This document shows positions 2,831 to 2,998 of a stretch of 7,230 nucleotides of DNA, one piece after another (the stretch's first letter is position 1; each line of letters opens with the position of its first letter). The notes beneath the pieces were generated by a model, which saw nothing but the letters and a program-made list of their open reading frames with translations, was not told where the DNA came from and searched no databases. The translations under genes and the position numbers were made by a program. The stretch covers positions 1 through 7,230 of IMG/VR virus record IMGVR_UViG_2547132270_000006, one strand, 5' to 3'. This stretch comes from a virus (lineage: Duplodnaviria > Heunggongvirae > Uroviricota > Caudoviricetes).

Positions 2831-2855
2831 AAACAAAAAATGGCCACCAGCGGCC
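2831..2855 (-). terminator. Terminator-like hairpin plus U-tract about 40 nt upstream of the holin start
   Basis: Minus strand reads GGCCG-CUGG-UGGCC (5-bp stem with one G:U, 4-nt loop) followed by AUUUUUUGUUU (plus-strand aaacaaaaaat at 2831-2841). Confidence 0.4.
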
Positions 2856-2941
2856 CGTAAAAAACACCCCGTCAAAGGCACCCGCAGATGCCTTTTGTGT
2901 GGTGTTATCTGATTTAATGTGCGCCAGACATGGCACATATA

Positions 2942-2968
2942 TGAAAAAGACCCCGGTACATACCCGGG
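2942..2968 (-). terminator. Terminator-like GC hairpin plus U-tract between the opposite-strand cargo gene and the holin
   Basis: Minus strand reads CCCGG-GUAUGUA-CCGGG (5-bp all-GC stem, 7-nt loop) followed by G UCUUUUUCA. Would stop minus-strand transcripts leaving the cargo region. Confidence 0.4.
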
Positions 2969-2979
2969 CCAGATGAAGT

Positions 2980-2998
2980 GCCAGATTAAGAATCTGGC
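2980..2998. repeat. Perfect 8-bp inverted repeat with a 3-nt spacer (GCCAGATT-AAG-AATCTGGC)
   Basis: Read directly at 2980-2998; no U-tract on either strand, so more likely a protein-binding site or RNA stem than a terminator. Lies in the divergent intergenic region between the holin and the plus-strand cargo gene. Confidence 0.5.

Follow-up and report, generated by a model that had tools for sequence, protein, structure and literature searches.

Terminator-like hairpins form a portable leader directly upstream of holin genes in lambdoid prophages

We describe a cluster of hairpins directly upstream of the holin gene in a lambdoid prophage (IMG/VR virus record IMGVR_UViG_2547132270_000006, positions 1 to 7,230). 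This 7,230-bp stretch, hereafter the window, is the late-control and lysis region of the prophage, carried on the minus strand. The cluster is real and goes beyond chance. Its holin-proximal part, a run of three hairpins that we call D-tB-tC (2835-2945), is a conserved portable element, and judged from aligned copies the conserved feature is holin-strand RNA structure under visible purifying selection. We favor, with moderate confidence, the reading that the region would serve as a set of tandem Rho-independent terminators, shielding the lysis cassette from transcription that is not antiterminated and passed by polymerase loaded with the antiterminator Q. Within this reading the conserved structure is observed, while termination, its override by Q, and a selective value against leaky lysis are what we infer.

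Results

The pre-holin leader folds into five serial hairpins

Between 3000 and 2830 the RNA of the holin strand forms five hairpins in series: an inverted repeat (IR), tA, D, tB and tC. Three of the five (tA, tB and tC) are directly followed by runs of five or six U. The parts of the leader, in the order in which they would be transcribed toward the holin gene, are:

2980-2998, minus: inverted-repeat hairpin IR, GCCAGAUU-CUU-AAUCUGGC; 8 bp, -10.9 kcal/mol
2944-2970, minus: terminator-like hairpin tA; stem-loop 2949-2970, GGCCC.GGU-AUGU-ACC.GGGUC, then U5 at 2944-2948
2920-2937, minus: hairpin D, UGUGCCA-UGUC-UGGCGCA; 7 bp, no U-run
2859-2910, minus: terminator-like long hairpin tB; 15 pairs, -22.1 kcal/mol, running into U6 at 2859-2864
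2842-2855, minus: terminator-like hairpin tC, GGCC-GCUGGU-GGCC, then A and U6 at 2835-2841; 40 nt 5' of the holin ATG
2795-2834, minus: holin-proximal 5' untranslated region (5' UTR) with the Shine-Dalgarno sequence GAGGUG; specific to the S21-type holin
2579-2794, minus: holin gene of the S21/EssD type with the dual start MKSM; PF04971, E = 7e-35

As expected of intrinsic terminators, tA, tB and tC each join a G+C-rich stem-loop to a U-rich tract on the transcribed strand. The stem of tA has 8 pairs and was flagged by the consensus scan. In tB an outer stem, AACACC/GGUGUU, pairs 2901-2906 with 2863-2868, and an inner stem, AAAGGCAUC/GGUGCCUUU, pairs 2887-2895 with 2874-2882 around a UGCG tetraloop (2883-2886); because U6 follows directly, tB too is terminator-like. 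The tC stem has 4 bp in the window and 5 bp in most relatives. The arms of the IR, GCCAGATT/AATCTGGC at 2980-2987 and 2991-2998, form a perfect 8-nt repeat with a 3-nt spacer. Since no U-run follows, the IR is not itself a terminator; it may act as an RNA hairpin or as a DNA site of a divergent promoter.

The first-pass annotation of this DNA had listed hairpins with U-tracts at 2831-2855 and 2942-2968 and an 8-bp perfect inverted repeat at 2980-2998. All three are present, the first two with boundaries at 2835-2855 and 2944-2970, and the terminator-like character of these two on the holin strand is borne out by stems and U-runs, by the consensus scan and by the fold. A further hairpin, GGCAUC-UGCG-GGUGCC at 2877-2892, also exists but is merely the tip of the longer tB (2859-2910), and hairpin D had been missed.

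The holin-proximal 5' UTR folds only weakly, no better than its shuffles (z = -1.3). A 9-nt direct repeat, CGCAGATGC (GCAUCUGCG on the holin strand), occurs at 2806-2814 and 2883-2891 and links the tip of tB with a small hairpin at 2797-2820 that overlaps the Shine-Dalgarno region of the holin. The repeat may be tied to the dual-start control of S21-type holins, or it may be the trace of a duplication.

Over 171 nt the holin strand folds to -64.2 kcal/mol, against -47.6 +/- 4.1 in shuffled sequences (z = -4.1, 0 of 200 shuffles as stable). The plus strand likewise beats its shuffles over this length (z = -3.9), and in the core (2835-2945) the values are -3.7 for the holin strand versus -2.4 for the plus strand. 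The consensus scan found 2 terminator-like sites on the holin strand within about 130 nt, where about 0.1 would be expected from a shuffle rate of 7.4 such sites per 7,230 nt on both strands. By an arithmetic estimate, the 8-nt IR taken alone is at chance level, about 1.4 being expected per window with a spacer of up to 12 nt. For two of the hairpins the holin strand gives a clearly more stable fold than the plus strand (tA, -12.2 versus -8.0 kcal/mol; tB, -22.1 versus -16.3); D and tC differ little between strands, and the IR is equally stable on both.

Pairing is conserved on the holin strand

Pairing was counted for 18 pairs of tB and tC in 38 distinct variants, giving 682 pair cells; the sets were fetched by exact anchors in tB or tC and contain close relatives, and the cells are not independent events. 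Of these cells 97.5% are paired, versus 48-56% when the partners are slid by 1-3 columns, and in tB 13 pairs are retained in 95-99% of cells across the 38 variants. Read on the holin strand, the cells comprise 591 Watson-Crick pairs, 74 G·U pairs and 17 mismatches (3 of them A/C), whereas the opposite strand would give 3 G·U pairs and 88 mismatches. Without a single U·G pair that hardly varies, the figures become 37 G·U versus 3 A/C. Variation is mainly one-sided change to G·U.

The same pattern is seen hairpin by hairpin. In loci anchored on tB, the tC stem is constant and its loop free (GCUGGU, GACAGA, GGUGAU, GCUGGA, GUUGGU), and the wobble variants of the tC stem (GGGUC/GGCCC, GGGCU/GGCCC, GGGCC/GGUCU) pair on the holin strand only. 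Hairpin D occurs as GCGCCA/UGGCGC, GCGUCA/CGACGC and GCGCUA/CAGCGC, which amounts to two compensatory pairs, with U·G wobbles in several variants; the terminator at the tA position shows both compensatory and replacement variants across loci. The U-run after tC measures 5-7 in all 110 distinct variants where its length could be taken. What varies is the single-stranded linkers, the internal loop of tB and the loop of tC. The structure is kept on one strand only, as would be expected of intrinsic terminators.

D-tB-tC is a portable element in front of unrelated holins

The tB-tC core is present in 751 copies in 532 of 5,426 complete E. coli genomes (about 10%), with up to 6 copies per genome, and in at least 119 IMG/VR stretches. 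E. coli W/KO11FL, for example, has it at 3,366,885-3,366,967 (NC_017660.1). A contig scan of other genomes returned nine matches, seven of them chance coding matches in GC-rich genomes; the real ones place the element in E. ruysiae and Citrobacter braakii only. Homologues are about 85-99% identical, and homology between the window and other prophages breaks at nested points near 2811, 2848, 2913 and 2953.

The downstream neighbor of the element is nearly fixed in position. A holin start follows at about 20-45 nt in 110 of 118 distinct variants (225 sites), and the holins so placed belong to two unrelated families, PF04971 (S21 type) and PF16931 (the type of phiP27 L28 and SerU-LTIIb holin1). 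The element ends with the U-run of tC, and a holin-specific ribosome-binding segment comes next; before PF16931 holins the segment corresponding to 2795-2834 is exchanged for another. The upstream neighbor varies, and may be the stop codon of a DUF3927 open reading frame (ORF), AT-rich DNA, or one or two further terminators. Hairpin D is absent where the DUF3927 ORF lies upstream and is otherwise part of the element.

In about a quarter of loci (L006 and L089 among them) the stop codon of this ORF, which encodes a small membrane protein, abuts tB, and in the other contexts the linker before tB resembles the last DUF3927 codons. It may be, from this resemblance, that the element originated as the 3' end of a DUF3927 gene. 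In E. coli E2348/69 the slot after DUF3927 holds the small RNA (sRNA) PasD. Phage SerU-LTIIb (L090) has two copies of the element, at about 1905-2010 and 3598-3730; one is intact and precedes holin1, the other is degenerate (its tC stem is broken, GGGCCGCTGGTAGCTC) and precedes a truncated duplicate, holin1a, which suggests that the element was duplicated along with the start of the holin gene.

Alignment to a known structured element of another kind, which the first-pass annotation had held would count against its interpretation, was not found. An Rfam search at a permissive threshold gave no match within the element (E up to 1 in the window, up to 0.1 in five related loci). A full-text literature search for the hairpin sequences returned a single match, a recombineering primer arm in PMC12571312, and no description of the element. 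Several named RNAs were considered and rejected. The CA-rich stretch AACACCACACAAAA had suggested an AgvB-like anti-GcvB sRNA, but the element does not align with published AgvB, AsxR or EcOnc03, Rfam gives no match, the element has the wrong orientation and its CA stretch is taken up in base pairs; the 3' domain of about 42 nt that characterizes AgvB and AsxR (RF02702/RF02703; …GTATCTCATGC…GCCCGAACCCAYTCGGGC-U) is absent by alignment, with no Rfam match in the window or the related loci. The PasA, PasC and PasD loci of E2348/69, read through the coordinates in PMC8550237, are unrelated in sequence, though they do have a pre-holin terminator of their own. STnc100 (RF02076) matches PasD2 and none of the element-bearing loci. 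HnrS (EcOnc10-12) is placed in prophage late genes by its paper, which offers neither its sequence nor where it lies with respect to the holin, and no link to it could be made. Judged by these comparisons, the element belongs to no described RNA family.

Terminators before holins are a general feature

We also drew a general sample of 80 loci by holin protein alone, which is unbiased with respect to the leader. A sense-strand terminator-like site lies within 200 nt of the holin start in 66 of the 80 loci and in 28 of 32 distinct leaders, and these 28 span several unrelated leader sequences. The controls are much lower, at 21 of 80 loci on the antisense strand and about 16% in shuffles. The 14 exceptions bear a point-mutated copy of a DLP12-type terminator. 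Among the holins preceded by a terminator are K-12 DLP12 essD, the prophage holins of E2348/69 and that of phage Ayreon, whose record annotates a terminator at the position homologous to tC.

Some unrelated leaders share with tC the 3' half, CTGG(T/C)GGC(C)-U5-6 (window 2835-2855), and use different 5' arms (L348 1475-1510, L007 3125-3165 and L002 2141-2180, from E2348/69 PP4 and PP2 and phage Ayreon). The pattern looks like that of a terminator remade several times over on a constant 3' arm and U-tract.

A second module carries the inverted repeat, tA and the head of a divergent gene

The upstream part of the leader belongs to a second module, module A (2943-3062), which recurs before holins of PF05106 (lambda family) and PF04971 (S21 type). 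In relatives the tA stem is re-sequenced yet still paired (GCCCCGG/CCGGGGC), and other loci have at the tA position an unrelated terminator, GGCUCGC-UACG-GCGGGCC-U5. Related loci retain 6-8 of the 8 bp of the IR.

The left half of module A is the 5' region of a divergent gene, here a cargo gene with a DUF2441 domain. Within 2999-3063 a conserved block, TTGATATCGTTACATCGCCAAAAGTAAC, is common to different divergent genes, while the ribosome-binding site and the ORF beyond it differ. A near-invariant block, TTGATATCGTTA(C/A)ATCGCCAAAAGTAAC (3016-3043, plus strand), stands before the ribosome-binding sites of unrelated divergent genes, with homologues in L004, L005, L030 and L225. The consensus scan detected no consensus promoter for the divergent cargo gene. 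Going by its recurrence, the conserved block is probably a shared promoter or 5' UTR cassette for opposite-strand morons beside the holin.

Genomic context of the leader

The remaining features of the window are as follows.

Minus: DUF968 and RusA genes, part of the lambdoid late-control and lysis region
4789-5184, minus: Q antiterminator gene; PF06530, E = 5e-52
4784-4755, minus: pR'-like promoter site by consensus scan, TTGACC-18-TATATT
4748-4672, minus: isrK-type leader RNA; Rfam, 77.3 bits
4693-4677, minus: leader terminator within the isrK-type RNA, by consensus scan
4761-4709, minus: c4-a1b1; Rfam
4646-4563, minus: C4 antisense RNA; Rfam
3947-4510, minus: gene for an ORF6N protein
3929-3902, minus: promoter-like site by consensus scan
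3064-3603, plus: DUF2441 cargo gene, opposite in orientation to the late genes
2999-3063, plus: 5' region of the DUF2441 cargo gene, left half of module A
Between the DUF2441 gene and the holin gene: 269-bp divergent intergenic region housing the hairpins
Minus, 3' of the holin gene: DUF1327/YdfR, lysozyme and Rz

The Q protein of the window is a distant relative of Q21 in the solved Q-RNA polymerase complexes (6P18/6JNX; E = 2.4e-7). Directly downstream of its gene and of a strong promoter-like site, the isrK, c4-a1b1 and C4 antisense RNA matches all score above the Rfam gathering score. Together with the ORF6N gene, the segment 4563-4761 resembles a P1-type immI (c4-ant) or Gifsy-1 isrK-anrP module set at the position of a pR' leader, and such a resemblance implies constitutive transcription of the late strand in the lysogen.

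Just 3' of the ORF6N gene is another terminator-like hairpin, AACCCGC-CUCCAU-GCGGGUU (3851-3870, minus). It falls inside a mechanically listed ORF (3619-3912); the true downstream ORF probably begins at 3828, encodes 69 aa and has no Pfam match.

By consensus scan there is no sigma-70 promoter-like site in 2795-3063. Candidates picked by eye, TTAACG-16-TATACC on the late strand and TGaTATCGT on the plus strand, are weak and speculative only.

Discussion

A proposed gate at the 5' boundary of the lysis cassette

In the reading that we favor, the leader would be the 5' boundary of the lysis cassette, with tA, tB and tC interspersed with two plain hairpins and the whole assembled from two portable modules, module A and D-tB-tC. 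In the lysogen, polymerase traveling on the late strand without Q would be halted ahead of the ribosome-binding site of the holin. The transcription so stopped would include readthrough from the promoter that lies just after Q, is in constitutive use and yields the isrK- and C4-type RNAs, transcripts from the promoter-like site at 3929-3902 and, in other prophages, transcripts of upstream morons and other genes such as DUF3927/TerB, tRNAs and stx2e. The late strand is probably transcribed upstream of the terminators in the lysogen. Upon induction, Q would load polymerase at the promoter beside its own gene and make it resistant to hairpin-dependent termination; this polymerase would then cross all three terminators, so that the holin, endolysin and spanin genes are transcribed.

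The gene order agrees with this reading. Upstream of the lysis genes, and on their strand, come the Q gene, a late promoter-like site and a leader terminator, as in a Q-antiterminated late operon, and the Q/pR'-like/isrK unit (4672-5184) is the presumed source of terminator-resistant polymerase. The segment between tC and the holin gene (2795-2834) is too short for a promoter, so every holin transcript must cross tC, and as no promoter-like site lies between the terminators and the holin start, the holin would be transcribed only by polymerase that crosses them. The Q-antiterminated readthrough proposed in the first-pass annotation fits, since Q (PF06530) and the pR'-like promoter upstream on the same strand make it the natural route to holin expression; for these particular terminators, readthrough is deduced from gene order. 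The role proposed there for the hairpins, insulation of the plus-strand cargo from antisense transcription, does not fit. Late transcription runs from high to low coordinates and meets the cargo gene (3064-3603) first and the hairpins (2835-2998) afterwards, so they can protect only what follows them, the holin.

Published work on porcine Shiga toxin-producing E. coli offers a case in which such a gate would matter. There the order is stx2e, then the element, then the holin gene (PMC12571312), and phiP27 has the same layout. Extracellular toxin rose under fluoroquinolone in 17 of 52 strains, all with this layout, and deletion of the holin gene abolished the rise in both strains tested (PMC12571312). 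A terminator before the holin fits the finding that the stx2e-linked holin aids toxin release only after SOS-inducing antibiotics (PMC12571312).

Several points weigh against this reading. The 4-bp stem of tC in the window and the modest tA mean that the efficiencies of single terminators may be low. Hairpin D and the IR, having no U-run, are not explained by a terminator role. D-tB-tC was perhaps inherited merely as the 3' end of a DUF3927 gene, in which case part of its linkage to holins could be historical. The relatedness of the anchor-fetched sets tempers the pairing counts. Finally, a hairpin with a U-tail after a U-rich stretch is also typical of the 3' end of an Hfq-binding sRNA.

The last point introduces the strongest alternative, in which D-tB-tC is mainly the gene or source of a trans-acting Hfq-binding sRNA released from upstream late-strand transcripts (DUF3927 mRNA, for example) and the block before the holin is a by-product. 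We consider this unlikely, though it deserves to be taken seriously. Validated prophage sRNAs occupy this slot: PasD2 begins about 40 nt after the DUF3927 stop codon, PasA, PasC and PasD1 are described as adjoining the holin/lysozyme operon, and between the moron and the downstream genes Tree et al. detected sRNAs of both sense and antisense orientation. The 3' end of the element, UGUUUUUUACG followed by the tC hairpin and AUUUUUU, is a typical Hfq-binding module, with a tail of at least 6 U after a U-rich stretch, and up to 6 copies per genome is a further point in its favor. But the consensus scan shows no sigma-70 promoter-like site in 2795-3063, and the element has no Rfam or sequence similarity to AgvB, AsxR, the Pas RNAs or STnc100, and no link to HnrS could be made. 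The CA-rich stretch that resembles a GcvB target is paired within the outer stem of tB. Stems and U-runs are conserved while linkers, internal loop and tC loop vary, the opposite of a conserved seed; in the element the single-stranded parts are the variable ones, and a conserved accessible seed was not found.

It is tempting to combine the two ideas. D-tB-tC might be a mobile RNA recruited before unrelated holins that gates lysis and also leaves a 3' fragment that binds Hfq and acts on host or phage targets, or D and tB might tune the timing of lysis; we offer this tentatively, as a speculation from sequence. Such a fragment, terminated or processed, could be abundant in lysogens and would occupy the same slot as PasD. 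Alternatively, D and the long tB could act after readthrough, through mRNA processing or stability.

A second alternative concerns the IR only and is compatible with the terminators we favor for the rest of the leader. The IR (2980-2998) and the adjoining palindrome GGTATACC could be a DNA operator for a regulator of the cargo promoter and not an RNA hairpin. The IR lies about 65-85 bp ahead of the cargo start within the divergent intergenic region, has no U-run, is equally stable on both strands, and travels with the conserved block that heads different divergent genes. We nevertheless regard an operator as doubtful: symmetry falls to 6 of 8 bp in the most frequent relatives (GCCAGAAG...AATCTGGC), chance alone would supply about one 8-nt inverted repeat per window, and no gene for a DNA-binding protein is evidently linked.

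Relevance of the plus strand is considerably less probable. In this view tB could terminate transcription on the plus strand or in both directions, or could form the 3' end of an sRNA that is antisense, as AgvB and PasA are, and could stop antisense transcripts from the lysis genes before they enter the cargo promoter, a function that we hold to be just as improbable. The hairpin GGCACC-CGCA-GAUGCC followed by UUUUGUGUGG is indeed found there, AgvB, AsxR and PasA lie antisense to the late operon at comparable positions, and the plus-strand fold of 171 nt beats its shuffles, as given above. Strand-specific evidence points the other way. The 74 cells that are G·U on the holin strand become A×C mismatches on the plus strand, and only 3 cells show the reverse; the hairpins are weaker there; the U-tract has just 3-4 U and in common variants is eroded to CUUUGCG; no U-run follows tA or tC on this strand; and the conserved 3' domain of AgvB is missing.

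Slightly less probable again is that the cluster is a functionless scar of recombination, made of leftovers of moron terminators or of a pR'-tR' leader at a mosaic junction. The nested homology breaks fall exactly here, terminators with unrelated stems replace one another at the tA position, and degenerate copies are known, for example at SerU-LTIIb holin1a and L030. Wobble and compensatory changes, free loops on fixed stems and U-runs of at least 5 instead show selection for pairing, and unrelated leaders before the same holin independently bear sense-strand terminators. The vestigial pR'-tR' leader suggested in the first-pass annotation can be set aside on similar grounds: the pR'-tR' unit is intact elsewhere (4672-4784), no promoter-like site lies in 2795-3063, and the element is not decaying, since hundreds of prophages maintain it with compensatory and wobble changes that are specific to the strand.

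The idea that the region encodes a small plus-strand protein (window ORF 2827-2976, 49 aa), for which there is a PGAP annotation in E. coli genomes that spans the homologous element (WP_162721299.1, a 'hypothetical protein' of 47 aa; L001 4328-4471), is effectively refuted because the reading frame is not conserved: the majority context, with PF16931 holins, has no start codon and an in-frame TAA before the shared sequence, differences of 1-4 nt in U-run length shift the frame, and substitutions follow RNA pairing on the other strand. WP_162721299.1 is probably a false gene call propagated in RefSeq.

Relation to known systems

In lambda, pR', the 6S RNA and tR' likewise set an intrinsic terminator on the late strand between Q and the lysis genes, as do the equivalents in phages 21 and 82, and in lambdoid late operons lysis-gene expression needs a Q-modified polymerase that ignores hairpins; the Q of the window is itself distantly related to Q21. 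The cluster differs from lambda tR' in its position, about 1.8 kb downstream of a pR'-like promoter that has its own isrK-type terminator (4672-4748), in being a tandem set of unrelated sequence that abuts the ribosome-binding site of the holin, and in moving as a module among prophages with different holins and upstream genes.

Terminators also flank morons, a concept that goes back to Juhala et al. 2000, as cited in PMC4104026. Like these, the cluster borders the zone downstream of pR' in which morons insert, with homology breakpoints at terminators. Unlike them, D-tB-tC stays at the holin position while the upstream gene changes, and since the adjacent moron in the window is on the opposite strand, the terminators cannot be that moron's own.

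The element resembles the sRNAs of this zone (AgvB/AsxR, PasA/PasC, PasD/STnc100 and EcOnc27) as a short hairpin with a U-tail between morons and the lysis cassette, and PasD follows DUF3927 as the element does in about a quarter of loci. Whereas AgvB, AsxR and PasA are antisense to the late operon, the structure of the element appears to be selected on the sense strand, and in contrast to the sRNAs of the zone it shows no covariance-model or sequence similarity to them, no promoter-like site and no conserved single-stranded seed. A similar logic, by analogy only, is seen in Tn916, in which, according to PMC11658703, an insulator terminator prevents premature expression of harmful genes and is bypassed by dedicated antitermination. 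Element, host group and antitermination system all differ there, and the sequences are unrelated. The type of device is thus an ordinary one, and D-tB-tC itself, on the searches made here, is uncatalogued and absent from Rfam.

In summary, D-tB-tC is a widespread, unannotated RNA element that is swapped among holin families, and it is a candidate RNA family for curation. Its recognition flags a likely spurious 'hypothetical protein' annotation that has spread through E. coli genomes. If termination proves true, the element would offer a natural tandem terminator of compact size that Q can turn off. Because the element separates stx2e or LT-II toxin genes from the holin gene, it also bears on the extent to which induction and toxin release are coupled. 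Since the holin is lethal to the cell once expressed, a prophage has to keep its lysis cassette silent even as the morons, toxin genes, tRNAs and immunity RNAs that lie just upstream, on the same strand, are transcribed. Our analysis suggests that lambdoid prophages of Escherichia solve this problem with terminator modules set against the ribosome-binding site of the holin.

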